NCBI GenBank assembly: GCA_963745965.1 | Contig: CAVUZC010000006.1 | Span: 148,895 to 212,894 of the forward strand | Origin: an uncultured Acidobacteriota bacterium | Lineage (GTDB): Bacteria > Acidobacteriota > Terriglobia > Terriglobales > Acidobacteriaceae | Direction of reading: 5' to 3' | Length of the DNA: 64,000 bases | In this document: positions 1-19,859 of the stretch, in pieces | Layout of the letters: every line of letters starts with the position of its first letter | Position numbering within the stretch: the stretch's first letter is position 1 | Made by a program: the position numbers and the translations under genes | Notes under the pieces: generated by a model | Seen by the model: only the letters and a program-made list of their open reading frames with translations | Databases searched by the model: none | What the model was told of the DNA's origin: nothing

Positions 1-1147
1 ACGATCTCATCTATCGGATTCGTCCCTATGAGATCGTGCCCGGCAGCACCGACCTCGCCGTTGATGAGGCGGTGGATAAACTCGCCCATTTTCTCGAGAA
101 CCGCCGGCACTTTGAGATTCTCGAGCGGCTGCCCAGGCCGGCCGCGAACATCGTGGCTCGAAGCCGCAGATTGAAAGGATTTCTCAATGTCACGGGGAAA
201 GTGCTCGATCATCTTTACAGCCGCACCTTTGTGGCGGAGATGCAAAGCGCGCGAGAGCGGCTCGGCGAGTTGGAAGTCGATCACACACGCGTGAAGCCGG
301 TGGTGAAGATTGTGGGCGAGTTTTGGGCGCAGCTCACCGAGGGCGACGGCAACTTCAACATGTTTGCGTTCCTCGAGCGTGAGGGCGCGCAGGTGCATAT
401 CGAGTCGATCTCGGGATGGATCAGCTATCTGCTCTACCAGTCGCGCGCGGGCATGGAAGCAAGGAAGGGGCTCGAGTACCGATATAACGATGCGCACTGG
501 TGGGAACTGCGCAAGATCGCCGCTAACCGTTGGGGATACCGGCGCAAATGGCTCTTGTTGCGGGGCAGCGAGATGGCATGGGAACGCCTCTATGCGCGAA
601 CGGCGCGGCGCATGGGCGGAATTACGCCTCCCCTGGTTTCCCAGCGCGAACTGGCGCGTCTCGCGCATCCCTTCTACCATTCGCTCGCGCGCGGCGGCGA
701 AGGACACCTTGAGGTGGGCAAGAACGTCTACTACACCACGAACAAGCTCTGTCACATGGTGCTCGCGCTGAAGCCATTTGGCTGCATGCCCTCCTCGCAA
801 TCCGACGGCGTGCAATCGGCGGTAGTCAACCGGTTTCCGGAGATGACGTTTCTGCCCATTGAAACCGCGGGAGAAGGCGAGATCAACGCTTACAGCCGCG
901 TGCAGATGGCTCTGGGCGAAGCGCGCGCGAGGGCTCGCGACGGAGTTCGAAGCGGCGCTCGATTCCACGGGCCACTCGCTGGATGCGATCAGCGAGTATG
1001 CCGGGGCGCATCGGCAACTTGCGCAGCCCCTTTTATCCTTTTCCCCGCCAGCCGGGAATTGCCGGCGCGGCGGCGAACTTTGTGATGCATGTGGGCAGGC
1101 TGATGGACGGAAGAGAACAAATGGCGCGGCTTCCGGGTGAACGTTGA
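1..1147 (+). CDS. 2-hydroxyacyl-CoA dehydratase (HGD-D)-like reductase subunit, PlsR/Ger C-terminal-like; 5' truncated by window edge, frameshifted near 940 and 1040
   Basis: Frame open from nt 3 (DLIYRIRPYE...). Motifs KIVGEFWAQLTEGDGN and LALKPFGCMPS are typical of activase-associated HGD-D domains. The C-terminus continues in shifted frames (...EFEAALDSTG..., ...AANFVMHVGRLM...GER*) to a TGA at about 1147. Confidence 0.7.
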
Positions 1148-4100
1148 AAGAGGCGGTTCTGCAGGCTCAAACACAACGCGGCGGCGATGAGAACGGCGGA
1201 GCCGGAGGCCGCGTCCGCTTCCTGGTGGGATTCGATGTAGGTTCAACGACCGTAAAAGCGGTGGCCGTCAAAAGGCCCGAGTGAGCAAGATCGTGTGGCG
1301 CGACTATCGGCGACACGAGACGCGGCAGGCGGAGACGGTGCATGAGTTTCTCGTGCGCATGGAGCGCGAAGTCGGCATAGCCGCGGGAAACAGCCGCGTC
1401 TTCATCACCGGCACGGGAGGCGGCGCGCTCGCCGCTCCCATCGGCGCGCGTTTTGTACAGGAAGTGAACGCCGTCGCATTGGCGGTAGAAAAACTGCACC
1501 CGGAAGTGCACTCGGTCATCGAACTCGGCGGACAGGACGCGAAGATCCTGCTCTTCAAGCAGGATGGCCAGGGACGGCGCAAAAAGATCGCCTCGATGAA
1601 CGACAAATGCGCAGGCGGAACCGGCGCGGTCATCGACAAAATTGCAGCGAAGCTGGGCATTTCCGCCGGTTGCCTGCAAAGCCAGCGCTACCACGGCATC
1701 CCGATCCATTCCGTGGCCGGCAAATGCGGCGTCTTTGCCGAGACTGACATCAATAGCCTGCAAAAGCTCGGCGTCCCCGCAGGCGAACTCATGGCTTCGC
1801 TCTTCGACGCGATCGTTTTGCAGAATCTGACAGTGCTCGCGCGCGGCCATACGCTGGCTCCCGAGGTTCTGCTGCTCGGCGGACCCAATGTCTTCCTTCC
1901 TGGAATGCGCGAAGCCTGGCAGCACAAGATTCCGCTGCTCTGGCAAGAGCGCGGAGTGAAACTGCCGTCCGGCGCCGCAGCCGAAGACCTGATTCGCGTG
2001 CCGGAGGATGCGTTGTATTATGGCGCGCTCGGCGCCATCGAGTTTGGCAGAACCGAGGATGAGGCAAGCGGTCTTTATGCCGGGCGCAGCGCGTTGGAGT
2101 GCCTGATGCGCGAGCGCCGCGGCGACGGATCCGAGGTTCTCGGTAGTCGCGGATTGTGCGCCTCCGACGAGGAACTGCGCGAGTTCGAGCGCAGGTATCG
2201 GCGGCCCGCGTTTCAGTCGCCCGACTTTCGCGCAGGCGAACGGGTGGATGCCTTTCTGGGAATCGACGGCGGCTCGACTTCTACCAAGGCTGTACTGCTT
2301 TCTGCGCACGGAAAGCTCCTGGCCAAGGCTTACCAGTTGTCGAAAGGCAATCCTATTCAGGACACGATCGAAGTGCTCCAGCGGCTGCGCGGCCAGGTGG
2401 AGGAAGATGGCGCGCAACTTGCCATTCTGGGCGTGGGCACGACCGGGTACGCCAAGGATCTCCTCCGCCAGGTGTTCAAGGCCGATGTGGCAATCGTGGA
2501 AACCGTGGCGCACGCGGAATCCGCAAAGCACTTCTTCGCCGATCCGCAGGTCATCGTCGACGTGGGCGGACAGGACATCAAGATCATTCTGCTGCGCGAC
2601 GGCGCAGTGAGGGATTTCAGGCTCAATACGCAGTGCTCGGCCGGGAACGGCTACTTTCTGCAATCGACGGCAGAGTGTCTGGGGATTCCACTGGAGAACT
2701 ATGCCGAAGCCGCATTCAGTGCGAGGGCGATGCCGACGTTCGGTTATGGATGCGCGGTCTTTCTGCAATCCGATATCGTGAACTTTCAGCGCCAGGGATG
2801 GCGCGCCCACGAGATCCTCGCGGGACTGGCGACGGTGCTTCCACGCAACGTCTTTCTGCACGTGGCTAAGGTGCCAAACCTGCCCGCGCTGGGCACGCGG
2901 TTCATCCTGCAGGGGGGAACGCAAAACAATCTTGCCGCAGTCAAGGCGGAGGTGGATTTTCTGCGGGCCTCCTTCCGTCATTCTGGCATAGAGCCCGAAA
3001 TCTCGATTCATCCTCACTGCGGGGAATCCGGAGCGATCGGCGCGGCCCTCGAGGCGATCCGGACCAGGCGCGCGGGAATAGCGACCAGCTTCATCGGCAT
3101 GGACGCGGTGGCAGACGATCCGCTACAAGACCGAGTGCGACGAGCAAACGCGATGCTGCTACTGCACGAATGCATGTCTGCGCACGTTTCTCAGCGTAGA
3201 AGGACGGAATGCAGCCGTCTCCAGGCGCTTCGCGGCGCATTGTGCTGGCGAATTGCGAGAAAGGGGCGGCGCAGGACGTCGATGAGTTGCGCGGACATTC
3301 GAGCAAGATTGGAAACCGTCAAGGCCGCGAACCCTAATCTGGTCGCAGTCGCGGCGCGCGAAGTGTGGCGCTCGCGGCGGCCGGAGCTTGTGGTCGATTC
3401 CGTTCCACGGCGCGCATGGAACCGCAAGGACAGTCAGAAGCTGGCGTTGCGCAGAAAACGTGGTGAGCTGCGCATTGGCATTCCACGCGTGCTCAGCATG
3501 TATGCGTACGCCCCGTTGTTCAGCGCCTATCTCGAAAGCCTGGGCGTAGCAGCGGAGAACATCGTGTATTCGAGCGTGACCTCCGGAGAGATGTACCGTT
3601 CCGGCTCCAGCCGAGGTTCGATCGATCCTTGCTACCCCTCAAAGATCGCCATCGCCCATGTGCACGATCTGCTGTTTAAGCAGCATCCGCGCGCGCCGTT
3701 GGACGTAATTCTCTTCCCGATGTTCGACGTTTTGGCTACGCGGCTCGCGCATACTCGCGCCAACAACGGCTGTCCAACGGCATCGATCACGCCGGAAACC
3801 GTCGAAGCCGCCTACACGAAAGAGACCGATCTGTTTGGCGAGCGCGGTATCCGCTACATTCACCCTCTGGTGAATCTCACGAACCGCCGGCTCTTTGCCC
3901 GCCAGCTTTATGAGGCGCTCGAACCGGTTCTGGGATTGAGCGAGGACGAAAATGCGCGGGCCGTCGAAGCCGGCTTCAGGGAATTAGAGCGATTCGAAGA
4001 GGACCTGCGCCGCCGCGGCCGCGAGGTGCTGGACCGGGTGGAGCAGGAAGGGCGGATTGCCGTTGTCATGCTGGGCAGGCCGTATCATCACGATCCCGGC

Positions 4101-4577
4101 ATTCACCAGGGCATTCCGGAAGAAATTCAGAAGCTCGGTTATCCCGTCCTTTCGCAGAGCACGCTGCCCGTGGACAGCGATCTTCTGGAGCGGCTGTTCG
4201 GCGAGGAGATTCGCGAAGGCGTCATCTCATCCGCTCTCGAAATCTCCGACGTGTGGAAGACCGCGTTTTCCGCCAACTCCAACCAGAAGTTATGGGCGGC
4301 GAAGTTCGTGGCGCGCCATCCTAATCTTGTTGCGGTGGAGTTCTCCAGCTTCAAATGCGGTCACGACGCCCCGATCTACAGCGTAGTCGAGCAGATCATG
4401 CAGTGCTCCGGCACACCGTACTTCGCTTTCAAGGATATGGATGAAAACCGCCCCGCGAACTCGATCAAACTGCGCATCGAGACCATGGATTACTTCCTCA
4501 AGCGCTACCGGAAGGAGCGATTCGGGACCGGAGCTGAGCCGCTGGAACAAGCTGAGGTCGATGCGGCCGTCTGCTAA
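1144..4577 (+). CDS. CoA-substrate-specific enzyme activase: two BadF/BadG/BcrA/BcrD ATPase domains plus a DUF2229-type reductase region (PlsA/Ger-like); frameshifts near 1280 and 3110-3290
   Basis: GFDVGSTTVKAV (frame 1, about 1225) and GIDGGSTSTKAV ASKHA motifs; ELGGQDAK...MNDKCAGGTG and DVGGQDIK...NTQCSAGNG; RCCYCTNACLRTF in a shifted frame; GIPRVLSMY, CYPSKIA, GRPYHHDPG, FKCGHD. The TTG start overlaps the upstream stop. Confidence 0.85.
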
Positions 4578-4595: not shown

Positions 4596-6380
4596 TCAGG
4601 TTAACTCTGTTGCGCGAGCGCGATTCGCCAGAACCTGCGCGATCCTCTCGCGCGCATATTGAAATCCGGTCAAGCCTGCGCAGGCTTCAGCGCGAAGGGC
4701 GGTTAATTCCCTTCGCAGGCTTGTTTCCGCCGGCGTGCCACGCGAGCCGCCGCTGATCACGCTGATACTGGTTTGCACTGCACGGGACACCGCGCGTGCC
4801 GATGCCAGATGGACGAGATCCTCGACCACGCCGGCGTTTGCATCCGGCGTGGACACTTCGAGTTCCGCGGAATCGAGCAGCAAAGAACGCGCGGCAAGCA
4901 AGCCGCAGAGCGAATCCGCCATTGCAAAGCCCGCTGCCTGACGCAAGCCGTGAAAGGCTCCTTCCGGGCCGGAACTGGTTTCGCTGCGCAAAACGCCAAG
5001 TGTGCGCGACCAGAACCTTAATCCTGTGGCGAGGATATTCGCAGCGGCCGTGTTGTGTTTGCGGTTTTCGAGATCTTCGATCCAGGCGGAAGCGTTTGCA
5101 GCAAACGTATCCGTCGTCATCGCGGCGGAGATCAGGCGCCGTTGCGAGGCGTCCGGGCCCATGTAGACGGCTTCCACCTGCGCATCGGCGATGTGCCTGT
5201 GGAGTTCGGCGGCGCTGGCGCCTGCAGCCGCGGCAACCCGAGAGAGCGCTGGAATGATGCGCGTGCTTGCGAAGAGCTTGGCGGCTGGGGAGAACAGATT
5301 GGAGTGCGCAGCAGCCGCGCGGTCGCAGGCGCCCCGGAAGTCCAGTTCGTCGCAAGAGCGCGCCGCTGAAAAACCCAGCGAGGCCGCGGCCTCTGCGGCC
5401 GCCCAAAGGTCCGCCATGTCAAGCCAGAACGCCGGGCTGTCGCATGGGGGTGCGGGGAAGAAATCGGCGGTTACTGCCAGGGCTTTGGCTGCGGTCATCA
5501 GCGCAAGGAGCGCCCGCGCCCGGCGCAACGCAGGCTCGAGCAGGTGCCGATGATCGAAGTTGGGCACGAGTACGCCATGCTCTTTCGTGTAGCCGCCCAC
5601 GATCCGCGCCGCGGGCACGCGCAAGCGAAAGCCGGGATGAGTAGCCGACGCGATGCGATGACCGATCTTTCTTGCCGGCGCTCCGCGATCGAACTCCCCT
5701 GCGTCGTGCGGCTCCAGAACGACGAGAGCGCTGCCGCTCGCTCCGTCGATTCCCTGTACGGCGGCTACCGCGAAATCCGCAAACTCCATGTGACTGGTGA
5801 ACCGCCCGCGCTTTTCGACCTCGATCCAGAGACCGTTCGCATCGCCGCTGGGACGATACGTTCCCATCAGCAGAAGCGCTTCCGCTCCGGCGCCGGGAAT
5901 CGGCTCGGTGAGACAGAGCGCGCCGTGCAGCAGGCTATTCTCCGAAGCATAGCGTTCCTTCTGTTCAACCGTGCCGAAATCTGCGATCGGCATCTGCGCC
6001 AGAAATCGCGACAGAAACAACGTCGCCAGGCCTCCATCCCGCGCGGCCAATTCGAGCAGAACCAGCCCGAGCGGTACGGCCGCCGGCTGCCGCGCGGAAG
6101 CCATCGCAGAAAGCAAGTGTGTATTGTCCAACGCTGCGAGCAGTTCCGCCTTTTCAGCGTTCCAACCGCAGGCGTTGCGAGTGCGTGCGGATTCAAGCTG
6201 CTCCTGCATTGCAGCCGCAAGTTGCCGAGCGCCGTCTTGCGCGGCGCAGAGGGCAGCTTCGTCCGCCAGCCGCCAGAGCCGCCGGTGGGTTGCCCGCAGC
6301 CAGTTGACAGACTCTGCCGGCCTAGGGCAGACGGACGGATTGCGGGCTATCTGGGACACAGTATTCCGCCATGTAGGCAC
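4596..6380 (-). CDS. Acyl-CoA dehydrogenase family protein (divergent)
   Basis: GALCLTEPIPGAG, EKRGRFTSHMEFADFAV, KIGHRIASAT, AKLFAST, DAQVEAVYMGPD resemble ACAD motifs. Start may be the GTG near 6360. Confidence 0.75.
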   Translation of the reverse strand: MPTWRNTVSQIARNPSVCPRPAESVNWLRATHRRLWRLADEAALCAAQDGARQLAAAMQEQLESARTRNACGWNAEKAELLAALDNTHLLSAMASARQPAAVPLGLVLLELAARDGGLATLFLSRFLAQMPIADFGTVEQKERYASENSLLHGALCLTEPIPGAGAEALLLMGTYRPSGDANGLWIEVEKRGRFTSHMEFADFAVAAVQGIDGASGSALVVLEPHDAGEFDRGAPARKIGHRIASATHPGFRLRVPAARIVGGYTKEHGVLVPNFDHRHLLEPALRRARALLALMTAAKALAVTADFFPAPPCDSPAFWLDMADLWAAAEAAASLGFSAARSCDELDFRGACDRAAAAHSNLFSPAAKLFASTRIIPALSRVAAAAGASAAELHRHIADAQVEAVYMGPDASQRRLISAAMTTDTFAANASAWIEDLENRKHNTAAANILATGLRFWSRTLGVLRSETSSGPEGAFHGLRQAAGFAMADSLCGLLAARSLLLDSAELEVSTPDANAGVVEDLVHLASARAVSRAVQTSISVISGGSRGTPAETSLRRELTALRAEACAGLTGFQYARERIAQVLANRARATELT

Positions 6381-7758
6381 GAGGGTTCATCAGTTGTTGC
6401 GAGCGCGCAAGGATGCGCGCAAGTTGGCCGACGTGCCGTAGATCCACCTGCGGCAGCCACTGCCACCACTTCTTGCGCCCGGCCGCATTCAGCACGGTGC
6501 GGCGCCACGTTTCGCAGTAAAGCTCGAAGAAACGTTCGACGGGAAGACGGGGCTTCCAGAGCAGATGATGCAGATCGTATTGGTTCCAGTCGAAGACTTT
6601 GATCTTTTCCCGGGTCGATGCGAAGAACTCCGTGCCAGGCAGGGGAGTCAGAATCGTGAATCCCAGCCGGAACAGCTGATGCGTCTCCACAAAATCCCAG
6701 AGAGTGTGAAAATCCTCTTCGGTAAAATCCGGATCGACGATAAAGTTGCCGGTGACGCCGAAGCCGCAGTCTCTCGCCACGCGCACGGCCTCCAGAGTCT
6801 TGGAAATATCGCTTCCTTTGTGCAGGGAATTGAGCCCTTGGCGCGTGGGCGACTCGAATCCGAAAAAGATGTCGAAGTTTTTTGCCAGCGGACGCCATAG
6901 CCGCAGCAGGTCTGCATTTCTGCTCACCAGGTCGGCGCGGGACTGCACCAGAATCCAGTTCTTGCGGGCCGGGGATGCGAGCAATTCGCGGGCGAGTTCC
7001 TCGCTGCGCGCCGAATCCGCCCAAAACAGGTCGTCGATGATAAAAAGATTGCGGCCGATGGCCGTGAAATCCTGGCGCACGTGCTGCGCCGAATGGTAGC
7101 GGCAGTTTCCCTCGTAGAACTGCCAAACGGAACAAAACTTGCAGCGGTGGCGGCAGCCGCGCGTCGTCTCCAGCGTCCACAGAGGCATGTAATTCAGACA
7201 GACATAGTGCTTGCGATAACCGCGGACGGCGGCGCGATCCGGCGGCAGGACGCGCTCCATCTCCAGCCATGGTTGCGCGCCGGCGGTGGCAACAAAACGT
7301 CCGTCGCCGGCGGGCAGAAGCAGGGATGGAATCTCGTCGAGAGGCCGGCCAGCGGCCAGAGCGCGGCACAGTGCCGGCATAATGCTCTCACCTTCACCGG
7401 CGCAGATGGCATCGATATTCTTCGCTCCCTCCAGTGCCTGCGGATAGGATGCGATGGAGTGTCCGCCGACGGCCACGAAAACCGAAGCATCGGCGGCCTT
7501 GATCTCCGCGGCCTGGGCAAGCGTTCCATGCACGTCGAGAATGTGCAGGCAGGAAATGCCCACGAGCTGCGGCCGGAAAGAGCGGATGAAATGCGCCATG
7601 GGCCGCCGCTCGAAGCCCATATCGACAATGCGCGCCTCGTGGCCTTCGGCGGCAAGCGCTGAAGCAATGTACTCAAGTCCGAGAGGCTCGGCGCGAAAGA
7701 AAGGCGCGAGACCGAAATGGGCAGTCGCGTTGCGCGGCTTGACGAGCAGAACCCTCAA
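6322..7758 (-). CDS. Cobalamin-binding radical SAM protein, HpnR-like class B C-methyltransferase family
   Basis: N-terminal B12-binding-like domain (EPLGLEYIA, VAVGGH); TTRGCRHRCKFCSVWQFY CxxxCxxC; IIDD, FFGFES, GNFIVDPDF, LTPLPGTE, YDLHH resemble hopanoid C-3 methylase HpnR-family motifs. Confidence 0.85.
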   Translation of the reverse strand: MRVLLVKPRNATAHFGLAPFFRAEPLGLEYIASALAAEGHEARIVDMGFERRPMAHFIRSFRPQLVGISCLHILDVHGTLAQAAEIKAADASVFVAVGGHSIASYPQALEGAKNIDAICAGEGESIMPALCRALAAGRPLDEIPSLLLPAGDGRFVATAGAQPWLEMERVLPPDRAAVRGYRKHYVCLNYMPLWTLETTRGCRHRCKFCSVWQFYEGNCRYHSAQHVRQDFTAIGRNLFIIDDLFWADSARSEELARELLASPARKNWILVQSRADLVSRNADLLRLWRPLAKNFDIFFGFESPTRQGLNSLHKGSDISKTLEAVRVARDCGFGVTGNFIVDPDFTEEDFHTLWDFVETHQLFRLGFTILTPLPGTEFFASTREKIKVFDWNQYDLHHLLWKPRLPVERFFELYCETWRRTVLNAAGRKKWWQWLPQVDLRHVGQLARILARSQQLMNPRAYMAEYCVPDSPQSVRLP

Positions 7759-8033
7759 CGGGGACCACCTTCTCCGCTCAGCCGGGAGTGGCTGACGACG
7801 ATGTGCGTAATTGCTTTCTAAATCTTAGGCCGAGTTTTGCGGCCGGTAAAGGGCTTGCGTTTTCGGCGTTTTCCCGCGCGGTTCTTGTTGAACGGATTGT
7901 GACGCACGTCCTTCGCCAGCGCAGCCGGAATGCTGTACATTCGTCTTGTCGCCTCCCAAGCCTCCGTGGATCTGCGAACCACGCGATCGGCGTTTGCTTG
8001 CGTGGTGTGTGCTTGTACAGGAAAGAACGAACG

Positions 8034-8815
8034 ATGCTGCGGCCGTATCTCTTTATCGGTCTGTTTGTAGCGACCAACTGCACCCTTGCGTTGCTCTATC
8101 CGTTCTCTTTGGCCCGATTTCTTGCCTTCGCGGCCCTCTACGGTCTGGGAACGGGAGTCATGCTCTTCCTGCTCTTTTATCCCACCAACGATTGGCTGGT
8201 GACGAACCGCTCGCATGTCGAAGGCGACAAAGAGATGGCGCTGACCTTCGACGATGGGCCCGACCCGGTGGACACGCCGCGGCTGCTGGATTTACTGCGA
8301 GCAAAAGGGCATCAAGGCGACATTTTTCGTCGTTGGCCGCCGCGCCGACGCAGCATCCCGAGATCGTGCGCCGCACCTGGGAAGAAGGGCATCTGATCGG
8401 CAATCACACGTGGTCGCATCAACCGCTTTTTTGTTTTTTGCCGCCATGGCGGCTGCGTCTGCGAGATCGAGCGCGGCACGGAGAGCATCCGGCGCGCTCT
8501 GTGGCATTAAACCACGCTACTTCCGTTCCCCGGTCGGATTGCGCCATCCCTTTCTCCGCCCCTATCTGGCCAGGCCGGGCTGACGTTTGTCTCCTGGCGA
8601 TTGCGCAGCCGCGATACCAGCATCCGCAATGCGGAGAAGACTGGCAGCATCGCATCGTGGAGAATGCGGAAGGCGGCGATATTATCCTTCTGCACGACCA
8701 CCGGCCCTGCGGAGCGAAGCCGATGCTGGAGGCGCTGCCCGGCGTGATCGACAATTGCGGGCGCGCGGATTTCGAATTCGTTCTTGCCGGCTCACGCGAA
8801 GAAGCGGAATACTGA
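8034..8815 (+). CDS. Membrane-anchored polysaccharide deacetylase (NodB/CE4), several frameshifts
   Basis: Two N-terminal hydrophobic segments, then LTFDDGP, ATFFVVG, GNHTWSH, RYFRSPVG and IILLHD spread over three frames. Confidence 0.85.
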
Positions 8816-8825: not shown

Positions 8826-9502
8826 ATGAAAACCTGCGCATTGATTCCGGCATACAACGAGGCCAGCCACATCGGCCAGGTCGTGAGCGGCGCAAGAGCG
8901 CACGTGGATTCCGTGGTGGTCATCGACGATGGTTCCACGGACGAAACGGCCGAACTGGCCAGAAGGGCCGGCGCGGTTTGCTTGCGCAACGCTGCAAACC
9001 GCGGCAAGGGTTCAGTGCTGCGCACGGGCATGAAACATGCTATCTCCGAAGGATTTACCCACGCCGTGACTCTGGATGGCGACGGCCAGCATCTTCCCGG
9101 CAGATATTTCCGCGCTGCTGCGCGTCGCCCGGGAAACAGAAGCCGACCTGGTGATTGGCGCGCGCAACTTCGAACGTTCGCGATGCCAAGCGGCGCGCTA
9201 TTACTCGAACACGGTGGGCAGCCGCTGGGCGTCGGCGCATGGTGGGCAGGAAAATCGCCGACAGCCAAAGCGGATTCCGAGTGTACAAACTGGAGAGAGT
9301 TTCGCCAGATCGTTTTGCGCAGCACGCGTTATGAATTCGAAATGGAAGCGCTGATCAAGATGGCGCGAGCGGGGCGGTCATTGTCCATGCCCCCATCCAA
9401 ATGATTTACCAGGGCAATCAGCCGCGATCGAAGATGAAGCCGATACGCGATACCGTGCGCATCTGCTTCTGTTCCCTGGCATTTCGGTTTTTGGGAGCTT
9501 GA
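8826..9502 (+). CDS. Glycosyltransferase family 2 (DPM-synthase-like), frameshifted
   Basis: IPAYNEA, VVVIDDGSTD, NRGKG, TLDGDGQH (DxD), RYEFEMEAL. Stop at 9502 is followed by the next ATG at 9504. Confidence 0.85.
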
Positions 9503-9503
9503 G

Positions 9504-10136: not shown

Positions 10137-10549
10137 TGGAACAAGCAGAGATCGAAAAGCTGATTCCGCACCGGCCGCCGTTTCTGTGGATCGATCGCGT
10201 GGTGGAACTGGAACCGGGCAGCCGTTGCGTAGCGATTCTCAACGTCAGCGCGGAGAACCCGGTCTTCGGCGGGCATTTCCCCGGCAGGCCGATCTTCCCC
10301 GGCGTTCTGATGATCGAGGCCGTGGCGCAGACCGCGGCCGTGATGCTGGGCGCGGAAGGCCCGGCGGCGAGCGCGTTGCTCGCGTCCGTCAACCGCTTCA
10401 AGTTTTTGCGGCCGGTCATTCCCGGTGAATGCCTGCGTATCGAGACAAAAAAGCTAACGCAGATGGCGGCGATGGCTTACATTGAGGGCACCATCGCAGT
10501 AAGCGGGGAAAGAGTGGCAAGCGGCGAACTATCGGTCGCCTGGGGCTGA
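10133..10549 (+). CDS. fabZ: 3-hydroxyacyl-ACP dehydratase (FabZ family)
   Basis: IPHRPPFLWIDRV and FGGHFPGRPIFPGVLMIEAVAQ hotdog-fold motifs; ATGA overlap with the upstream gene. Confidence 0.9.
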   Translation: MMEQAEIEKLIPHRPPFLWIDRVVELEPGSRCVAILNVSAENPVFGGHFPGRPIFPGVLMIEAVAQTAAVMLGAEGPAASALLASVNRFKFLRPVIPGECLRIETKKLTQMAAMAYIEGTIAVSGERVASGELSVAWG

Positions 10550-10605: not shown

Positions 10606-11721
10606 ATGATGAAATCCGGCAGGGCATACATCAAGAAACTGGGAGCGACCCTGTTGACGGAGGGCCTGGACCCGGGTCAGGCCGGCATGGCGGTCGGCTT
10701 GGGTATCTTCATCGGCATCGTACCCATCTACGGTTTGCAGTCTCTGGCTGCTATCGGCCTGGCGATCGTCTTTCGCCTCAACAAACCTTTGACGTTGGCC
10801 GCAACCTTCATCAACAATCCCATCCTTCAACCTTTTCTCGTCATCGCATCGGTCGAGTGCGGCAGCTTGCTGCGCACCGGCTCTCTCCACCCATGGCATC
10901 TGGCGGGCTTCACCACCGCTGCCTTGCGCAACGATCTGGTTTCGTGGGCGCTGGGCAGCGTGGTTCTGGGAGTGGTTGCGGGCGCTGCCGGGACCGTGAC
11001 CACGATGGTTACCGTCGCATGGCTGCGGCCATCGAACTCCGGGCTGCGACGGGGTCCCGGTTTGCGCGCGCGGGTCCGCTTTGTGAATGGCATTTACGCC
11101 GCCGCGCCGCGGTTCGATCGCGGATTCGTGCGCTGGAAGATGCGGCTGGACAAGATATTCTCCCTCCTTGCTGCGGAAGGAATGGGATCGGGTACTGCCG
11201 TGGACCTTGGCTGTGGCTATGGGATGGCCTTGTGCTTTGCCGCTTACGGCCAGGAGGGGCGGCAGCTTGCAGGCTGCGACCTCGACCGGCGGCGCATCGG
11301 CGTGGCGCAAAAGGCGCTGGCCGGCGTTCGACGCCAAGGTTGAGGTGTGCGATGTGCGGCAATACCCATTGCCTGGTGCCGGCTTGATTCTGATTCTCGA
11401 CGTACTGCAGTACCTGACCGCCGAGGAGCAGTTGGCCCTGTTGGCCCGCTGTTGCGTGGCTTTGGAACCGGGAGGAAAGTTCGTCTTTCGCGTGCATGAC
11501 CGGGAGCACGGCGTGCGTTCGGCCATCACCATCGCTTTCGACAAGCTGATCTTCAAGATCGGCAGCGCGTCCACTCGGCCTTTGGTGCTTTCGCCGGAGC
11601 ATACCGTGCGGCGCTCGAAGCGGCAGGGATGCAGGTGCGCATGAAGCGCTTCTGCAATCTTCTGCCTCTGGCGCACATTCTTTTTGTTGCCGAGAAGCCC
11701 CGGCCGGAGAGCGCCTTATGA
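10606..11721 (+). CDS. DUF2062 membrane domain fused to a class I SAM-dependent methyltransferase; frameshifted
   Basis: AVGLGIFIGIVPIYGLQ...FINNPI (DUF2062-like), then AVDLGCGYG, GCDLD, ILILDVLQYL and LEPGGKFV across frames; ends at the TGA overlapping the MMPL ATG. Confidence 0.75.
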
Positions 11722-14259
11722 TCGCCCGGCTCACGCGTCCCCTGGCGCAGCTAGTCATCCGTTGGCCCGGATGGATAGCGGCTGCGGCGCTTGTCCTGAC
11801 CGATCGTTCTTTACTCGCATATTCATGCTCTGCGCACCGGAACCGACCTGACCGGCATGTTCGGAAACAAGGATCCGCAATGGCAGGCGGTGAGCAAAAT
11901 CGGCAATGAGCTCGGCTACGGAAATCAGCTCTACGTGCTGGTGCTGGCGCCCGCCGGCGATGAAGATCGCAGCGACCAGATGGAGCAGGTTGCGGACCAG
12001 CTGACACAGGAGATGTCCGCAAGCGGACTCTTCAGGTCGGCGCGTTCGGGACTGTCGGAAGAGGAATTGCTCGGCATCGTCCGGCTGTTTTCCTGGAACT
12101 TTCCCGGCCTATGCGGACGCCGAAAACAGCCAGGCCATTCGCGACCGGCTCGATCCCAGGCAGATCCATGCCAACGTGCGCGCCGCTGCCACCGAATTAG
12201 TGACGCCTTTCTCGACTCTGGGCACAAACTACTTTGTTGCCGATCCTCTGGGGCTCACGGCGGCGGCGGCGCGAAACAAGCAAGGCTTGAGTGAGTTTGG
12301 CAACTTCGATTTCAACTGGGGCTCGGGAAACCGCTTCTTCAGCAAGGATCACAAGGCGTTGCTGATTATCGCCCAGCCGCGCCAACCTGCCGTCGATTAC
12401 CAGTTTGCTCACCAGGTGATGGACTGGACACGGCAGCACATCGCGTACGCCACATCCGGCTCGGTCGTCAGGGATTCAGGCGTGCATGCCGTCCCAGCCG
12501 GGGCCTATGTCTATTCCGAGGAAGACCATCTGTTCATCGAGAAGAACATCCGCCGCGTCTCGCTGGTAGCGATCGTCGGCAGCCTGCTGCTTTGCCTGGC
12601 GGTCTATCCCAATGTCCAGATCGTTGTTCTTGTCGCTTCTGCCCACGGGCCTGGGAATCCTTTGGACGACAGGAATTGCCAGCTACTATCCCGGCGAAGT
12701 GAATCTGATCAGCCTGTCGTTCATCGCCATTCTCGCCGGGCTTGGTGACGACCAGGTAGTGCATTTCTTCAACCGCTCGCCGCAGGAATGGGAGAAGGGC
12801 GGCAGCTTCAACGACGCCATGCTGCGCACCTTTGAAACCACGGGGACCAGCATCGTGCTCTGCATTCTGACTGCGGCTACTTCGACGGCCGCGCTGGCCT
12901 GTTCCGGTTTCAAGGCGCTGTCGGAGTTTGGCTTCATTCTCACGGTGGGCATGTTCATGACGGGATTGCACACCCTGCTGACGGTGCCCGCCCTGATGCA
13001 GTTGTGGGGACGATACATCAAGCCGCTCGCTCCCAAGGCCATCACCTTCCGTTTTCTGCCTTCCCTGGCGCGGGTCTCGGTGGATTTTGTCGGCCGCCAC
13101 GCCGCGCATGGTCGCCATCGCTGCCGGGGGCCTGTTTCTCGCGTCGTTGTGTCTGCTGCCTTCCATACGCTGGGGAGGTCATTTCGCCGTGACGAGCGGC
13201 ACGGACTCGCCCGGGTTGGCGGCGCAGAATCTGCTTTCGTCAAAGTACGGCATCGAAGGCAGCCCGGATGTGCTGCTGATGGCGGGCACCGAGGAGGAGG
13301 TTCTGCGCCGCGCCGAGAATCTGACCGCCGCACTAGGGGAATACCAGAGAAACGGCGTGATCAAATCGGTGTTTTCGCCATCGCAACTTTTTCCTTCGGT
13401 GGAGATGCAAGCGCAGCGCGCCGACTCCCTTAAGGGAGTCGATCTGGGCGCCACGGCGCGCGCACTCAAAGAGTCTTTAGACGAGAACGGCTTCCGTCCC
13501 GGCCCGTATGCATCCTACTTCGCGCGCCTTCGGGAGTTGAGCCAGAACGCGCAGCCGCTCACGCTCGAGAGCGCGAAGTCCTATCTGCCTGCCGACCTGA
13601 TGGAAAACAGCATCCGCCGGACGCAGGACGGCAATTACGTCGCCGCCATCGCCTTCTATGCCTCCGATCCCAACACTCCGCAGGTTATTCCCGATTCCGT
13701 GCTGAAGCAGTGGCGCATGCGATACGGTTCATTTGTCGATTTCTCGTTCAACAAAATCGACAGGGACCTCCAGAGCCGCGTCTCTCATGACAGCCGCCGC
13801 GCTCTCCTGTGGACGGCAGCGGCGATCTTCCTGATCGTGTACTTCACCTTTCGGCGTATGTCCACGGCTTTGCTGGTCCTCATGCCAATCGGCTTCGCCA
13901 TCGTGGTCACCTTTGGCATTTTGCAAATTGCCGGGCATCGTTTCAGCATGATGGCAATCACCGCGCTCCCGCTGATCGTGGGCATCGGCATCGACAATGG
14001 CATTCACCTGGTGCGCCGTTATCTTGAAAGCGATCGCGATCGCAACCGCATTCTCACGGTCGCCAAGGCTTCCGGCGCCGCGCTGATTCAGTCCAATTTG
14101 ACCACCATCGTGGGTTTTGGCGCTTTGATGACTGCCACCTTCAAGCCCCTGGCCGAGATGGGGTTGGTGACTTCGCTGGGCGTAGCTCTGACCCTGGCGG
14201 GAGGGTTCTGGTTGATTCCTGCCCTGCTGTACCTGAGGGAAACGCGCAGAGAATCTTAA
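11718..14259 (+). CDS. MMPL/RND family lipid exporter; several frameshifts
   Basis: Two repeated TM bundles with AGLGDDQVVHF and IVGIGIDNGIHLV, TGTSIVLCILT and SGAALIQSNLTTIVGFGAL, and F..L.EMG motifs, spread over ORFs 11857, 12176, 12612 and 13087. Confidence 0.85.
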
Positions 14260-14394: not shown

Positions 14395-15966
14395 ATGTCC
14401 AGATCTGCTACGGGGGATTTGAACATCGATTTGGTAGCTTCTCTGTGCCCTGAGTGCGGGGCGCCGAGTACCGCGACCATCTTCGATCGTGCAGGAAAGG
14501 TCTACCAAAGGTCTCAGTGCGCTTGCCACGAGCCAGTTGAAGACCTGATTTTTTCCGACACAGCCCTCTACCGCAAACTCGACGAGTGGAACCGGCTGAT
14601 CTTTCCCTCTTCGCAGGTTGCCGGCAACCCTCCAGGAAATACGTATTGCCCGCAGGACATGAAAAGCGGGAACGAGCCTTGCCTGGCGGTGATCGATATC
14701 ACAAATCGCTGCAACTTTCGCTGTCCTGTCTGCTTTGCCGAAGCCAAGGGAGAAGGCAGCCATTACGCGCTTGATCCTGAGACCGTAAGAAAGATGCTGC
14801 AGGCCCTGCTGGACCGCCCCGTACCCTGCCGCAGCGTGCAGTTTTCAGGCGGCGAGCCTACCGTGCATCCGGAGTTTCCCAGCATTCTGCGCATGGCGCG
14901 GGAGATGGGCTTCACGCACATCCAGGTGGCCACCAACGGAAGCAAGTTTGCCGATCCCGATTACGCAAAACTCTGCGAGGATGCGGGACTCCACACGCTC
15001 TATCTGCAGTTCGACGGAATGAGCGACGAAGTCTACGTGAAGATGCGCGGCCAGCGCCTGCTCGACAAGAAGATCGCCGCGGTGCGCAGCATCGAGCAGA
15101 CCAACATGCGGCTGGTATTAGTGCCCACCATTATCGGCGGCATCAATGTCGATCAACTTGGGCCCATCTTCCGCTTTGCCCTCGAGCACAGCCGCTTTGT
15201 CACCGGCATCAGCGTGCAACCGGCGGCGCATGTAGGCCGCGTCGGTGTCGACGAAAATGGGGCCGAGCCCTTCAATCTTGCCGCCATGGCGAGGGAGTTC
15301 GGCGAGCAGACCGGGCTGACGCGCTTTCCCGACGACTGGTTTCCGCTTAATTCAATTGCTTTGCTGAGCCGGGCCATCGAACGCGTGCGCAACGAGCGCG
15401 TTCACCCCCCGCTCAGCGATGCGCATTGCTCCATTGGAACCTTCTTTTACATCGACGACAACAACCGGCCCTTCTGCCTGAGTAGCTTCTTCGATCTGGG
15501 CCGCTTCCTGCGCGGCATGGCGCAGGTGCAGTCCATGGCCACGCAGGGTTTGATCGGAAGGCAAATATCCAGGATCAGGCAGTTCGGCAGGTTTGCCACT
15601 TGTCTCAATCAGCGCAAGGCTCCTCCCGGGCTCACCTTCCAGCGCCTGATACGCAGTCTCGATGCCTGGGAGGACAAGGCGGACGGTCGTTCCGAAGGCT
15701 GGGATCGGCGCGGATTCAACGGCATCTTCGTGGCCGGTATGCACTTCATGGACGCGCACAGCTATAACCTGCGCCGGCTGCACCGCTGCATCATCCAGTA
15801 TGTCTCCACGGATGGAGAACTGATCCCGTTCTGTAGTTATAACGCAGGCGCACGGCTACGCGAGCAGGAAGAGTTGATTCGCATCAAGAACCGTCAGGCT
15901 GCAGCCCCGGCGCACCTGCCCGCCGCTGCCATGCCCGCCGGGAGCGGCGCGGCGCTCGACGATTAA
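14395..15966 (+). CDS. Radical SAM protein of the tetraether lipid synthase (Tes/GDGT-MAS, MJ0619) family
   Basis: N-terminal SLCPEC...QCACH metal site; DITNRCNFRCPVCFA; VQFSGGEPTVHP; IQVATNG; LYLQFDG; C-terminal HCSIG...GMHFMD...RCIIQY...LIPFCSYN matches the family as I recall it. ORF intact. Confidence 0.8.
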   Translation: MSRSATGDLNIDLVASLCPECGAPSTATIFDRAGKVYQRSQCACHEPVEDLIFSDTALYRKLDEWNRLIFPSSQVAGNPPGNTYCPQDMKSGNEPCLAVIDITNRCNFRCPVCFAEAKGEGSHYALDPETVRKMLQALLDRPVPCRSVQFSGGEPTVHPEFPSILRMAREMGFTHIQVATNGSKFADPDYAKLCEDAGLHTLYLQFDGMSDEVYVKMRGQRLLDKKIAAVRSIEQTNMRLVLVPTIIGGINVDQLGPIFRFALEHSRFVTGISVQPAAHVGRVGVDENGAEPFNLAAMAREFGEQTGLTRFPDDWFPLNSIALLSRAIERVRNERVHPPLSDAHCSIGTFFYIDDNNRPFCLSSFFDLGRFLRGMAQVQSMATQGLIGRQISRIRQFGRFATCLNQRKAPPGLTFQRLIRSLDAWEDKADGRSEGWDRRGFNGIFVAGMHFMDAHSYNLRRLHRCIIQYVSTDGELIPFCSYNAGARLREQEELIRIKNRQAAAPAHLPAAAMPAGSGAALDD

Positions 15967-16130: not shown

Positions 16131-19103
16131 ATGAGACCGTACGTCGTTCAAGGAAGCGGATCGCTCGCAACCAAGCGATACACTTTGTTGCTGGCTTGTT
16201 CAGCTCTTCTGATTTTGCCGGCGTTTGGGCAGGCCGGTCTGCCGCATCTTGCGGTCCCTATCTCCTCTTCCAACACCTCCGGTGAGTTAGCCGCCAACGT
16301 GGCGGCAGGCGTTGCCTGCGCGGCCCCTGGCTCTCCGGTAATCATGCCGGGCGCGGATTTCAACCTCGGCGCAAAAGCAGTTTCCGTCTCGCCGCTCGCC
16401 GGCCAGGCCGCAACTCTCGGCAATCTCCCATCGACCGCGGCGGTATGGCTGCATCTCCGCGTCGACTTCGCAGGACTGACCGGAAACGAATCGGAGCAGG
16501 AGCTCGCCGCGCGGGTCGACGCAGCCCTGAATCAGGCTCCGCTGGCAGCGCAGGGCGTTCGCGGACTGATTGTAGAAGTGAACGGCCCCGGCAAAGCTGG
16601 GGATCCGGTTGCCTATGCGCTCTTGCGCCTCGCCATCGGTGCGCGCTCGCTCAATCCAGGCCTGCGGATCGCATTCGCTTTTCCCGCCGGATTCGTCGCC
16701 GACCATGAATCTCTGGTCAAGCGCCTGGCCCCCTACTCCGATCTGCTGGGCATCGCTTTTTCGTCGCAATGGCGCGCCGAGGCCACATGGATTTCCGAAC
16801 AAGCCCTCAACAAGCCGCTGTTGCTCAAGCTGGACGCATCGGCCGATCCGGAAAAGGCATTTCTTGACGCCGCGATGGATTCCTCGGGCACCCAGGTGGA
16901 GATGCTGTGGACGGAGGCGGACCAAGCCTCTCTAACCGGCCGAATCTGCCGCCTCAGTAGCTTTCTTGTCCAGAACGTTCCCGCCGGCATGTTGCAGCTC
17001 GAAGGCTCAGCCGCGCCTTTGTCGCTCACGGTCGATGGCTCGCCTTCCGCCGGCGCGTTGTGGCTCACGAGTGGTCAATCGGCGGACTTCGTCGTACTGG
17101 CTCGTATCGGCGGCAGCCCGGATCATCCTCGCACCGCGCAGCTCCAATGGAAAAGCAACGCGCAGTACGATGCGGAGTGGTTCGATGCGGCTGCCGGCGC
17201 CTCTCTTGCTCCCGGCAAGCCCGTCGAATCCGCCGGCGAAACCACGCAAACAGCCTCTTCGATTACGGGCGCTTACGTTCTGATCGCTCTCCATCGCAAG
17301 AACCCTAATGAGACCGCGGTCTATAACCAGGTGGAAGTCAAAAGCGGTATCGAGCTCAACGTCCAGGAGATTATTGCTCGCTGGCAGCAATATCGAGACG
17401 CCCAGGATAGAAGACTCGAAAACTACCAGGCCTCCGTCTTCGTGAGCCTCCATTTTGAAACCGTCTCCATGGGCACGGGATTCGACGTCTCCATGAATAT
17501 GCGGCAGTTTTACCGCCGCGGCAAGCCGATGGAGCAGGCGCAGACAGGGTTCTATGTGAACGGCGTGCGGTTCGGCAACAACCACGCGTTTCCGCTGCCG
17601 CAGTTGGAGCCGGAAAAGGTGCTCACCCAGCCTCTGGTGCTCACGCTCAATGAGAGCTACAGTTACAAACTGCTCGGCACCGAGAAGATCGCCGGATCGC
17701 TCTGCTATGTCGTTGGCCTGGAGCCGAAGGTCGCCAGCGAGAACCTCTACAGCGGCAAGGTGTGGATCGACGGCGTCTCTTTCCGCGAGGTTCGCCAATC
17801 GCTCAGCGAGATGAGCAGTAAGAGCAACCTGGTTGTGAACGTGGAGACCGAAAACTTCGCCCTCGTCGACGACGGCAAGGGAGGCACGTTCAACCTGCCT
17901 CAGTCCTCCGCCGCGCAGCAGACGCTCAACGTCGCAAGCCGCGACTTTCACTTGCAGCGCACCGCCGTGTTTTCGGGCTATTCCATCAATGGCTCCAGCT
18001 TCGACCCCGATCTCGCGGCAGAACGCGCCTCGAACGATCCGATGTTCCAGGATACTGACCAGGGCCTGCGCTCGCTCAAGAAGGTCAGCGGCCAGCGGGT
18101 TCTCGAAACCGGCAGCGAGAAGAAGATTCGCTCTCTGGTCGGCGGCGCCATGTACTCGGGAACCTTCGATTTCCCGATTCCCTTCGCAGGCATCAGCATT
18201 GCCGACTTCGATTGGCGCCACACCGGCGCGCAACTCTCCATCTTCTTCGCGGGGCCTATCGCGGCCGTCAACTATTCCCGGCAACAGGGAACCAGATTCC
18301 GCTACGGAACAGACCTCGCGGTGTCGGCTCTTCCGGGCGAGAATCGCATCTACGTGGGCAACGTTGAGCAAACCGGTGAAGAGGTTTGGAGCTGGTCTGA
18401 GACCGTAGGCCAGCGCGCAACCTGGCTGGCTTCGGATCATCTCAGCCTCACCGCATACGCCTATCTCGAGGGCGACATCTACGCGGGAACCAGCGACACC
18501 TCCAGCCTGTACGTCTTGCCGCGCAACGGCGTCGCCCTGCTGCCCGGAACGCAAGTCCGCTTCACCGCAAAAGGCTACATTTTCACCGCCGACGGCACCC
18601 GCGGCCAGCGCATCGCGTGGAAGTCCTTCGGGTACCCCAACGCTCCGGAGCGCGCTGAGAGCGGATACACCCTCTACGATGGCGACCTCAACAAGGATTA
18701 CTATATCGGCAAATTCACCAAGGGCGGATGGGACATGGGCTACTACGGCGGCGACCAGCTCGACCGCTTCTCGCGCTACTTTCCGTGGCTCTTCTCCGAG
18801 CCGCACCTGCACGGCATCCCCGGCGGGACAGATTCCTTCGATGCCATCGCCATGAGCAGCGCGCATTATGGCTTCAACATCATGGATCTGTTCAAAATCG
18901 AAGGCCTCTACAGCTATGCCCGCGCGCGCAACCTGAGCGAGTCAAGCCACTTCAAGAAATTCGATGGCGCCGAGACCAACTTCAATATCGGTGGTCCCAA
19001 AGGCACGTTGATTCAAGGCACCGTCGGCTATGCCATCGACGGCAACATCGCCCGCTACAACTCCCGTTGGAGCTTTGACATGTTGATCTACAAGCCATTC
19101 TGA
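16131..19103 (+). CDS. Large secreted protein: N-terminal periplasmic domain, RseB/LolA-like middle domain and probable C-terminal outer-membrane beta-barrel
   Basis: Signal peptide; Y.Y.LLG.EKIAG..CYVVGLEP...YSGKVWID pattern of the LolA/RseB fold; aromatic and Gly-rich alternating strands; terminal Phe (LIYKPF). Confidence 0.55.
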   Translation: MRPYVVQGSGSLATKRYTLLLACSALLILPAFGQAGLPHLAVPISSSNTSGELAANVAAGVACAAPGSPVIMPGADFNLGAKAVSVSPLAGQAATLGNLPSTAAVWLHLRVDFAGLTGNESEQELAARVDAALNQAPLAAQGVRGLIVEVNGPGKAGDPVAYALLRLAIGARSLNPGLRIAFAFPAGFVADHESLVKRLAPYSDLLGIAFSSQWRAEATWISEQALNKPLLLKLDASADPEKAFLDAAMDSSGTQVEMLWTEADQASLTGRICRLSSFLVQNVPAGMLQLEGSAAPLSLTVDGSPSAGALWLTSGQSADFVVLARIGGSPDHPRTAQLQWKSNAQYDAEWFDAAAGASLAPGKPVESAGETTQTASSITGAYVLIALHRKNPNETAVYNQVEVKSGIELNVQEIIARWQQYRDAQDRRLENYQASVFVSLHFETVSMGTGFDVSMNMRQFYRRGKPMEQAQTGFYVNGVRFGNNHAFPLPQLEPEKVLTQPLVLTLNESYSYKLLGTEKIAGSLCYVVGLEPKVASENLYSGKVWIDGVSFREVRQSLSEMSSKSNLVVNVETENFALVDDGKGGTFNLPQSSAAQQTLNVASRDFHLQRTAVFSGYSINGSSFDPDLAAERASNDPMFQDTDQGLRSLKKVSGQRVLETGSEKKIRSLVGGAMYSGTFDFPIPFAGISIADFDWRHTGAQLSIFFAGPIAAVNYSRQQGTRFRYGTDLAVSALPGENRIYVGNVEQTGEEVWSWSETVGQRATWLASDHLSLTAYAYLEGDIYAGTSDTSSLYVLPRNGVALLPGTQVRFTAKGYIFTADGTRGQRIAWKSFGYPNAPERAESGYTLYDGDLNKDYYIGKFTKGGWDMGYYGGDQLDRFSRYFPWLFSEPHLHGIPGGTDSFDAIAMSSAHYGFNIMDLFKIEGLYSYARARNLSESSHFKKFDGAETNFNIGGPKGTLIQGTVGYAIDGNIARYNSRWSFDMLIYKPF

Positions 19104-19118
19104 TCGAGGACCGAGCCG

Positions 19119-19859
19119 ATGACGGCTAAGGACAAGACCGCGCTTGTAACCGGGGCATCGGGCACGCTGGGGGCAGAAATTGCCCTGGCTCTGGCGCGGA
19201 GCGGCTTTCGCGTGGCCGTGCATTACCACAGCAACCAAGCGGCCGCTGCGCGGGTGGTTCAGAGCATTCAGGCGGCGGATGGAGAAGCCGTCGCCGTGGC
19301 TGCCGACCTCTCGGAGCGCAACAGCGTGGCCCCGCTGTTTGCCGAAGTCGAAGCCCGTCTCGGTCCGGTCGATTGCCTGGTCAACAACGCGGGAATCAAT
19401 CGCGACGCCGTGCTGGCCCTTATGAGCGACGCGCAGTGGGACGAGGTGATCGACACCAACCTTCGCGCTGCGTACTTGTGTTCCAAATTGGCCGTCGTCG
19501 GCATGATGCGCGCCGGCGGCGGCAGCATCTGCAATATCGTTTCTCCCAGCGGAGTGCGCGGCCAGGCCGGCCAATGCAATTACTCCGCCGCCAAGGGAGG
19601 CGTGATTGCTCTGACTAAAGCTCTGGCCCGCGAGGCAGGCCGCTTCAATATCCGCGTCAACGCCGTTTGTCCCGGCGTGGTGCCCAGCCCCATGTCGGCC
19701 AGATACATCGAAAAGGAGGAACAGCGCCTGCTCGCCGAGATACCTCTGGGCCGCTTCGGTAAACCCGAAGAAATTGCGCCATTGATTGCGTTTCTCGCGT
19801 CGCCTCAGGCGAGTTACATCACTGGGCAGGTGATCGCCGTGGATGGCGGCTTGCTTTAG
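19119..19859 (+). CDS. fabG: 3-oxoacyl-ACP reductase (SDR)
   Basis: [45 protein letters not shown]. Confidence 0.9.

Follow-up and report, generated by a model that had tools for sequence, protein, structure and literature searches.

A conserved lipid-type gene cluster with a Tes-superfamily radical SAM protein in peat and soil Acidobacteria

Branched glycerol dialkyl glycerol tetraethers (GDGTs) are among the most-used terrestrial palaeothermometers, and we know of no proven bacterial enzymes for the coupling, methylation and etherification of their chains. Does the locus at positions 1-19859 of a 64,000-nucleotide stretch of contig CAVUZC010000006.1 (assembly GCA_963745965.1, from an uncultured member of the Acidobacteriaceae; the whole stretch is called the window below) hold such enzymes together, and what would they make? 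A preliminary description of the window had proposed that a PlsA/Ger-like activase pair, a Tes-family radical S-adenosylmethionine (SAM) protein and a cobalamin (B12) radical SAM protein were linked there with head-group tailoring and export, as the three chemistries of a branched-GDGT-like molecule. The cluster was found to be real, conserved and rare, in peat and soil Acidobacteria. Its existence and synteny, the acyl carrier protein (ACP) and ketosynthase (KS) and the homologies were borne out, whereas the equal linkage of the three chemistries was not. On sequence comparison the locus is, on balance, probably an accessory lipid cluster of the aryl-polyene (APE)-like kind, which would make a methyl-branched, tail-coupled and exported lipid. 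It constitutes a defined, conserved gene set that ties a Tes-type enzyme to lipid synthesis, cobalamin radical SAM tailoring and outer-membrane export; it seems to be transcribed, and it offers a testable lead on bacterial membrane-spanning lipids.

Conservation and gene content of the cluster

Thirty-four loci with the Tes-like protein were retrieved, nearly all from peat, bog, fen and soil metagenome-assembled genomes (MAGs) of Acidobacteriaceae, Terracidiphilus or Sulfotelmatobacter. In tblastn searches with the window proteins, the block of NodB, family 2 glycosyltransferase (GT2), LolA-like, FabZ, DUF2062-methyltransferase (MT), MMPL, Tes-like, 990-amino-acid (aa) and FabG genes was found as single open frames in nearly all 34 loci. 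The core set, whose synteny elsewhere the preliminary description had left to be checked, was kept together despite rearrangements in more than 25 related MAG loci of these three groups, in several gene orders. The same gene set was also present in copies with a Tes-like protein 56-61% identical to that of the window (loci L051 and L053 and genome G050), and L051 contained orthologs of all three B12 enzymes within the cluster. Since the linkage survives both repeated rearrangement and divergence to 56-61% identity, it lies far beyond chance.

The upstream modules were also present in relatives, in variable place and orientation. The module of PHP-like, B12b, LpxL-type, KS and chain-length-factor (CLF) genes was often found immediately 3′ of FabG, followed by the module of B12c, carrier protein and adenylation domain, often 3-4 kb further on the opposite strand. 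The 990-aa gene invariably followed the Tes-like gene in the loci compared, and the presence of an acyl-CoA-dehydrogenase-like gene beside a B12 radical SAM gene was conserved in Acidobacteriaceae loci only. In the literature joining branched GDGTs or Tes with a gene cluster, a methyltransferase or Acidobacteria, no description of this cluster was found, and an exact look-up of the window Tes-like protein returned no record.

Every gene type named in the preliminary description was found at 1-19859 in Pfam and NCBIfam scans of the window, as follows.

1..1147, plus strand: g01, C-terminal two thirds of a 619-aa Red2/PlsR-like activase partner, with its start about 0.7 kb upstream of the window
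~1144..4577, plus strand: g02, PlsA/Ger-type 'BBD' protein, 1142 aa when intact, that carries two BcrAD_BadFG ATPase domains and DUF2229
4596..6209, minus strand: divergent acyl-CoA-dehydrogenase-like protein, 537 aa, with weak Acyl-CoA_dh_1 and Acyl-CoA_dh_N matches
6322..7758, minus strand: B12a, class B (cobalamin-binding) radical SAM protein, 478 aa, with HpnR as nearest family, far under the cut-off
~8030..8815, plus strand: NodB-type polysaccharide deacetylase, 258 aa when intact, frameshifted in this assembly
~8826..9503, plus strand: GT2 glycosyltransferase, 224 aa when intact, frameshifted in this assembly
9504..10136, plus strand: LolA-like periplasmic lipid carrier, 210 aa, by a weak match to NCBIfam LolA2_flexi and by conserved position
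10133..10549, plus strand: FabZ / ApeI-ApeP-like dehydratase, 138 aa, with an ATGA overlap with the LolA-like gene
10606..~11700, plus strand: DUF2062 membrane domain fused to a SAM methyltransferase, ~365 aa, frameshifted, with an approximate end
~11700..14259, plus strand: MMPL/RND-type exporter, ~850 aa, in four frame pieces here and intact in relatives, with an approximate start
14395..15966, plus strand: Tes/GDGT-MAS-superfamily radical SAM protein, 523 aa, clade A, with an HMPTM zinc ribbon and with the tetraether synthase Tes as best family
16131..19103, plus strand: acidobacterial outer-membrane protein, 990 aa, with a LolA/RseB-like segment and a possible Omp85/TamA/ShlB-like barrel (the fold being a lead only)
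19119..19859, plus strand: FabG-type 3-oxoacyl-ACP reductase, 246 aa

The gene order given earlier was amended, with the acyl-CoA-dehydrogenase-like gene preceding the B12 radical SAM gene and both on the minus strand. Of the ATGA junctions described, that of the LolA-like and FabZ genes was present in the window, whereas the overlap of g01 and g02 was found to be TTGA in the intact copy.

The cluster was found to run about 11.3 kb upstream of nucleotide (nt) 1 (G000:C6 about 137.6-148.9 kb), with those genes on the minus strand. An ACP and a ketosynthase had been predicted to lie there, and a scan of the flank found both. The genes of this part, and the gene beyond the other end of the cluster, were as follows.

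Upstream of nt 1, minus strand: B12c, B12 radical SAM protein
Upstream of nt 1, minus strand: carrier protein, 102 aa
Upstream of nt 1, minus strand: adenylation domain (amino-acid adenylation model TIGR01733, 341 bits, above the cut-off)
Upstream of nt 1, minus strand: KASIII-like gene
Upstream of nt 1, minus strand: CLF-like gene and FabF-like ketosynthase (KS/CLF pair)
Upstream of nt 1, minus strand: LpxL/Lip_A-type acyltransferase
Upstream of nt 1, minus strand: B12b, second B12 radical SAM protein of the upstream part
Upstream of nt 1, minus strand: ACP, 87 aa
Upstream of nt 1, minus strand: PHP-like protein, 311 aa
22902-24287, minus strand: ribBA, beyond an alpha/beta hydrolase

The region 3′ of FabG (19884-22750) was found to contain three small open reading frames without a family match, followed by the alpha/beta hydrolase. 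Because these genes and ribBA follow FabG, the cluster end was placed near 19859-22750. The whole cluster thus spans about 31 kb with about 23 genes, the window holding its downstream two thirds.

Radical SAM enzymes, activase pair and export line

The protein described earlier as a Tes-family radical SAM was confirmed as a full-length homologue (E 4e-83) of the archaeal tail-joining enzyme Tes/GDGT-MAS (MJ0619, PDB 7TOL/7TOM; NF045702; Zeng 2022, PMC8941075; Lloyd 2022, PMC9433317), but it fell outside the Tes equivalog clade, at 350 against 450 bits. The match to 7TOL (E 4.4e-83) covered residues 15-493 of the query on 26-502 of the chain. With the Fe-S ligands of GDGT-MAS taken from Lloyd et al. 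2022 (PMC9433317), the window protein was found to keep the CxxC...CxxH site of rubredoxin-like type, the CX3CX2C motif of radical SAM proteins, and the C-terminal [4Fe-4S] region with its ligands and with equivalents of the labile Met439 and the conserved Tyr459. It differs from the archaeal enzyme in being bacterial and in standing within a cluster of fatty acid synthase/polyketide synthase (FAS/PKS) and export genes; its substrate is presumably a non-isoprenoid acyl lipid, and the coupling activity is putative. To our knowledge, no bacterial Tes homologue has a demonstrated activity. Among 103 full-length relatives of clade A (53-100% identical), the MHFMD and RCxxxY motifs were conserved in all, HC in 101, PFC in 100 and the radical SAM motif in 99, the radical SAM and rubredoxin-like motifs together ranging from 99 to 102 members.

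Three acidobacterial Tes clades, A, B and C, were defined by identity bands, hidden Markov model scores and motifs when 401 phylum genomes and 81 family genera were surveyed; the phylum tally takes in one unpublished genome (G029), on which no claim depends. Clade A, the window type, was found in 2/401 phylum genomes and 1/81 family genera and scored 314-350 bits on the Tes model. Clade B, 40-43% identical to clade A and about 550-600 aa long, was found to keep the N-terminal cluster motif and scored 556-560 bits, above the Tes cut-off; it was present in 12/80 genera and absent from the source genome. Clade C, 31-33% identical to clade A, was found as frames of about 700 aa without the N-terminal motif, at 310-322 bits, in all 33 family genomes of the phylum sample. 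The clade C copy of the source genome (G000:C11:303389-304954) is a 738-aa open frame, 31% identical and scoring 322 bits, and within 10 kb of it no cluster-gene homologue was found except a distant FabG-like short-chain dehydrogenase/reductase. Its presence in 33/33 genomes makes clade C, rather than the cluster gene, the stronger candidate for a trait shared across the family, for example iso-diabolic acid, which has been reported in almost all strains of subdivision 1 (SD1) (PMC13159169).

Clade A was found solely inside this cluster type, whereas clades B and C stand alone beside unrelated genes. A variant cluster in genome G466 (L073/L074, G466:C2:80000-115000) was found to contain neither a clade A gene nor B12 radical SAM genes; a duplicated, second clade C copy lay between the PHP-like gene and LolA, with the usual copy on another contig. 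Two different Tes clades were therefore independently recruited to the same cluster family. Acidobacterial Tes homologues have been proposed as branched-GDGT enzymes (PMC8941075; bioRxiv 10.1101/2022.04.07.487437), and the published producers S. usitatus and E. aggregans had been chosen for Tes homologues that share 40% and 32% identity with the archaeal protein (PMC8941075). By this published similarity, the Tes homologues of known branched-GDGT producers would fit clades B and C better than A. The distinction of the three clades matters where 'Tes homologue present' serves as a marker of branched-GDGT potential. Clade A as a general iso-diabolic acid synthase was rejected on its distribution (1/81 genera, 2/401 genomes).

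Two side observations concern these clades. The clade A copy of L051, a Logan contig, was 60% identical, and the same protein was found on a 5.56-Mb contig, possibly a closed genome. One genus (L061, G389:C29:230000-249999, also G152 and G244) was found to contain clade B and clade C genes about 4-6 kb apart, in L061 with an unrelated BNR/sortilin-like gene between them.

The B12 radical SAM of the preliminary description was found to be integral to the cluster, where the count is three and not one. B12a reached 225.6 bits on the HpnR model TIGR04367 (cut-off 650), below that cut-off, no hpn or shc genes were found among the cluster genes scanned, and its ortholog in the L051 copy was 59% identical. 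The three enzymes were found to be nearest, weakly, to the HpnR, BchE and ApyD models. B12 radical SAM enzymes are known as lipid-tail methylases and ring synthases which cluster with tail-coupling enzymes (PMC11214058). The cluster also resembles, by description, Mss, Gms, Gmm and Grs, radical SAM enzymes which couple, bridge, methylate and cyclise lipid tails and are often clustered.

The activase pair retained its PlsA/Ger-like assignment as to architecture, a BBD protein plus Red2, but it was not equally linked to the cluster and occurs alone elsewhere. The protein g02 was found to contain PF01869 twice and PF09989, which is the BBD core of two activation domains followed by DUF2229, an architecture which every Ger/PlsA homologue of the ether-lipid producers was found to share (Sahonero-Canavesi 2022, PMC13159169). 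The homologues of g01, which is cut in the window copy, are about 591 aa long by protein search, and Cys135, 174, 177, 489 and 500 were invariant. No Pfam match was found for g01, HGD-D included. By BLASTP, g01 and a fused PlsA-like protein showed co-linear matches that were not significant (E 0.2-0.4). In a profile-profile comparison, used instead, the g01 family aligned over 358 columns (hhalign 97.9%, E 3.8e-13) with the C-terminal module of fused acidobacterial BBD proteins 1414-1451 aa in length. By these comparisons, g01 and g02 are assigned as a split PlsA/PlsR-like enzyme in reversed gene order.

Compared with PlsA/PlsR of C. perfringens and Ger of T. maritima (Tmari_0479; PMC13159169), the pair shares the BBD architecture of g02, the homology of g01 to the C-terminal reductase/dehydratase module and a translational coupling like that of plsA-plsR. 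It differs in having Red2 first, in the long g01 (619 aa) without a Pfam HGD-D domain and in forming a separate acidobacterial family, with or without the cluster, whose ether-forming activity is putative. The pair was found beside the cluster in five of six close relatives, in two orientations, and 300 kb off in the sixth. It was missing from the cluster contig of G050, and no such pair was present in the gene lists of L051 and L053, which cover 10-kb flanks only. Orthologs of g01/g02, 52-64% identical, were found in about 25 of 80 other sampled genera, none of which has clade A; in the six of these inspected, the retrieved flanks (~5-9 kb) contained no further gene of the cluster, and the pair stood by itself. 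As a core cluster gene, the PlsA-like pair was rejected on its solitary occurrence elsewhere and its absence from the G050 cluster contig. Fused 1414-1451-aa BBD-plus-Red2 proteins, of the canonical PlsA/Ger-like length, were observed in L042 (G004:C17) and in L070 and L071 (G050); the source genome contained the split g01/g02 pair only.

The dedicated export line proposed earlier held, the MMPL, LolA-like and Omp85-like 990-aa proteins being conserved. The 990-aa protein belongs to an acidobacterial family whose nearest look-alikes are TamA/Omp85/ShlB-type barrels and DUF5686, together with a weak LolA/RseB-like segment. In three metatranscriptomes selected through the related Tes protein (two labelled peat, one unspecified), RNA-library contigs of 200-670 nt and about 81-90% identity were found to map to g01, g02, B12a, NodB, LolA, MMPL, Tes, the 990-aa gene and FabG, and none of the RNA runs contained the source strain.

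Readings of the product

The set of KS/CLF, ACP, ketoreductase (KR), dehydratase (DH), lysophospholipid-acyltransferase (LPLAT)-type acyltransferase, GT2, LolA-like and MMPL genes, which is the APE-type core, was found in one locus, and in architecture the cluster has an almost gene-by-gene correspondence to lipid clusters of the aryl-polyene/flexirubin kind. With the APE clusters (apeA-R of E. coli CFT073 and Xenorhabdus doucetiae) and with flexirubin clusters it shares the KS/CLF, one or more ACPs, an adenylating enzyme with a carrier, KR and DH of the FabG and FabZ types, an LPLAT/LpxL-type acyltransferase, GT2, a methyltransferase, a LolA-like carrier and an MMPL exporter. It differs from the APE clusters in that an aryl starter supply and an ApeK thioesterase were not recognised in it, and in the addition of the Tes-like protein, the three B12 radical SAM proteins, NodB, the PHP-like and KASIII-like proteins and the 990-aa Omp85-like protein.

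In the favoured reading as an APE-like accessory lipid cluster, a private type II machine (adenylation domain with carrier, KASIII-like protein, KS/CLF, ACP, FabG and FabZ) would build an acyl chain on its own ACP, and the three cobalamin radical SAM enzymes would methylate or cyclise unactivated chain carbons. The LpxL-type acyltransferase would load the chain onto a lipid or sugar acceptor, whose head group would be tailored by GT2, the NodB deacetylase, the DUF2062-methyltransferase and the PHP-like phosphoesterase. The Tes-superfamily radical SAM enzyme would couple chain termini by a C-C bond to give a bolaform (membrane-spanning) or macrocyclic lipid, and MMPL, the LolA-like carrier and the 990-aa Omp85-like protein would carry the product to the outer membrane. 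The pair g01/g02, as a candidate ATP-driven ester-to-(vinyl)ether reductase, would be a separate module brought beside the cluster in this lineage. The private type II FAS/PKS, the acyltransferase and the glycosyltransferase speak for a dedicated lipid that is exported and not for the tailoring of bulk lipid. A bolaform outer-membrane lipid, if this is the product, would add a new class to the envelope lipids of bacteria.

Several points weigh against this reading. We infer all chemical steps and the product from family assignments. The Tes-like protein scored 349.7 bits on NCBIfam NF045702 (Tes), under the curated cut-off of 450, and its residues at the [4Fe-4S]N ligand positions C73, C77, C80 and His read P, N, C and D, so that it differs from Tes/GDGT-MAS in the loss of C73, C77 and His; the C-x3-C-x2-C...H motif of that cluster was present in 0/103 clade A members. 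Because the enzyme lies below the Tes cut-off and is without the [4Fe-4S]N cluster, it may carry out a different radical reaction. The adenylation domain is of the amino-acid type. Neither an enoyl reductase nor a thioesterase was recognised in the locus, and the chain may therefore be a polyene, which would be a poor substrate for Tes-type sp3-sp3 coupling. The AlphaFold model of g01 was of low confidence (pLDDT 57), and its best Foldseek match, to the double-cubane cluster protein 7YYL/6ENO, was non-significant (E 0.036-0.08) and gives a hint only. The Omp85-like barrel of the 990-aa protein is a lead from language-model and structure look-alikes. The RNA contigs fit transcription of the cluster by relatives in peat, but they come from relatives and may reflect DNA carry-over.

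Some of these points would suit a pigment lipid of the aryl-polyene or flexirubin type, a reading which is unlikely but is the most credible of the alternatives. The cluster was found to contain one-to-one counterparts of ApeH/E, ApeO/C, ApeQ, ApeI/P, ApeD, ApeJ, ApeL and ApeM, the gene roles being those published for the ape genes. The FabZ protein matched both the ApeI and the ApeP models, the lack of a recognised enoyl reductase agrees with a polyene, and the chemistry of clade A may differ without one Fe-S cluster. However, neither a chorismate-derived starter gene, which would provide the aryl-starter supply, nor an ApeK-type thioesterase was recognised in the locus, and an adenylation domain of the amino-acid type does not suit such a pigment. 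All 103 of 103 clade A members kept the Met, the Tyr and the catalytic C-terminal cluster of GDGT-MAS, and the independent recruitment of a second Tes clade in G466 also counts against the pigment reading.

A branched-GDGT pathway would combine Tes-like coupling of iso-fatty acyl chains, B12-dependent C5/C6 methylation (perhaps with ring formation) and PlsA/Ger ester-to-ether reduction, and would give uncultured peat Acidobacteria a membrane-spanning ether (glyco)lipid that is methylated. All three enzyme types are present, three B12 radical SAM enzymes are conserved in the cluster, the carriers are mostly peat and bog MAGs with transcripts of relatives in peat RNA libraries, the oxygen-sensitive enzymes fit branched-GDGT production at low O2 (PMC13274423), and the acidobacterial pathway is still unsettled in the literature. 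This reading is nonetheless improbable. Clade A is not the Tes equivalog (350 against 450 bits), whereas clade B reaches 556-560, and it occurs in only 1/81 family genera and 2/401 phylum genomes, whereas iso-diabolic acid is found in almost all SD1 strains (PMC13159169) and clade C in 33/33 family genomes. The Tes homologues of producers (PMC8941075) would, by similarity, fit clades B and C better, the PlsA-like pair is not core, and bulk-lipid tailoring needs no private FAS/PKS, acyltransferase, GT or outer-membrane export. In a narrower form, the cluster would be a dedicated route to the abundant peat-type branched tetraether or membrane-spanning lipids of uncultured low-oxygen peat Acidobacteriaceae, with clade A as coupler, the B12 enzymes as C5/C6 methylases and ring synthase and the split PlsA/Ger pair as ether former; this combination of route and roles, taken jointly, is distinctly improbable. 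The evidence does not make the cluster a general branched-GDGT pathway. If the product were branched-GDGT-like, the methylases behind the methylation of branched tetraethers (MBT) proxy would be named.

Assembly errors and intact copies

The NodB, GT2, DUF2062-MT and MMPL genes were found to be split over two to four frames in the window, and g01 and g02 were also broken or garbled by single-base indels. In g01 the frameshifts lie at about -519, -69, 942 and 1019. The start of g02 overlaps the stop of g01, and extra window bases were present at 1281, 1292, 3116, 3200 and 3292, the last three of which garble about 60 residues. Between 8300 and 13104, some 15 single bases of the window had no equivalent in the closest MAG locus.

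A look-up of a 100%-identical 619-aa version of g01 retrieved two independent short-read assemblies: L049, from Logan, and L050, a GenBank metagenome assembly, with 99.1% and 98.9% identity to the window genome. They cover -10716 to 11183 and -3819 to 11183 of the window, respectively, both loci stopping at 11183. In both, about 40 one-base indels were absent and all genes covered up to 11183 were intact; for the rest of the DUF2062-MT gene and for MMPL, intactness is known from relatives, which keep single open frames. A 36,955-nt short-read contig covering 1-19900 confirmed the 12 indels listed, out of 67, which lie between 942 and 8025. The frameshifts are assembly artefacts. Because near-identical short-read copies and relatives are without the indels, the genes are not pseudogenes, and protein analyses should therefore use the intact copies.

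The many frameshifts of the window copy could also be taken as the mark of a decaying, non-functional remnant, or the locus as a chance juxtaposition of unrelated genes. This is very improbable, given that the indels are missing from two independent assemblies at 99% identity with intact genes up to 11183, that relatives keep single open frames, that the linkage is kept across rearrangements and down to 56% identity, and that RNA-library contigs of relatives exist. The pseudogene reading of the frameshifts was accordingly rejected.

The source genome consists of 16 contigs with 4.59 Mb, and our guess, from the contig number and size and the indel pattern, is that it was assembled from long reads. 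About 40 single-base indels against the two short-read assemblies were observed in 22 kb, from window -7745 to 11060 (G000:C6 about 141.1-160.0 kb), often beside mismatches and bunched in the sub-regions 7868-9370 and 11037-11057. Gene calls elsewhere in the source genome may be split likewise.

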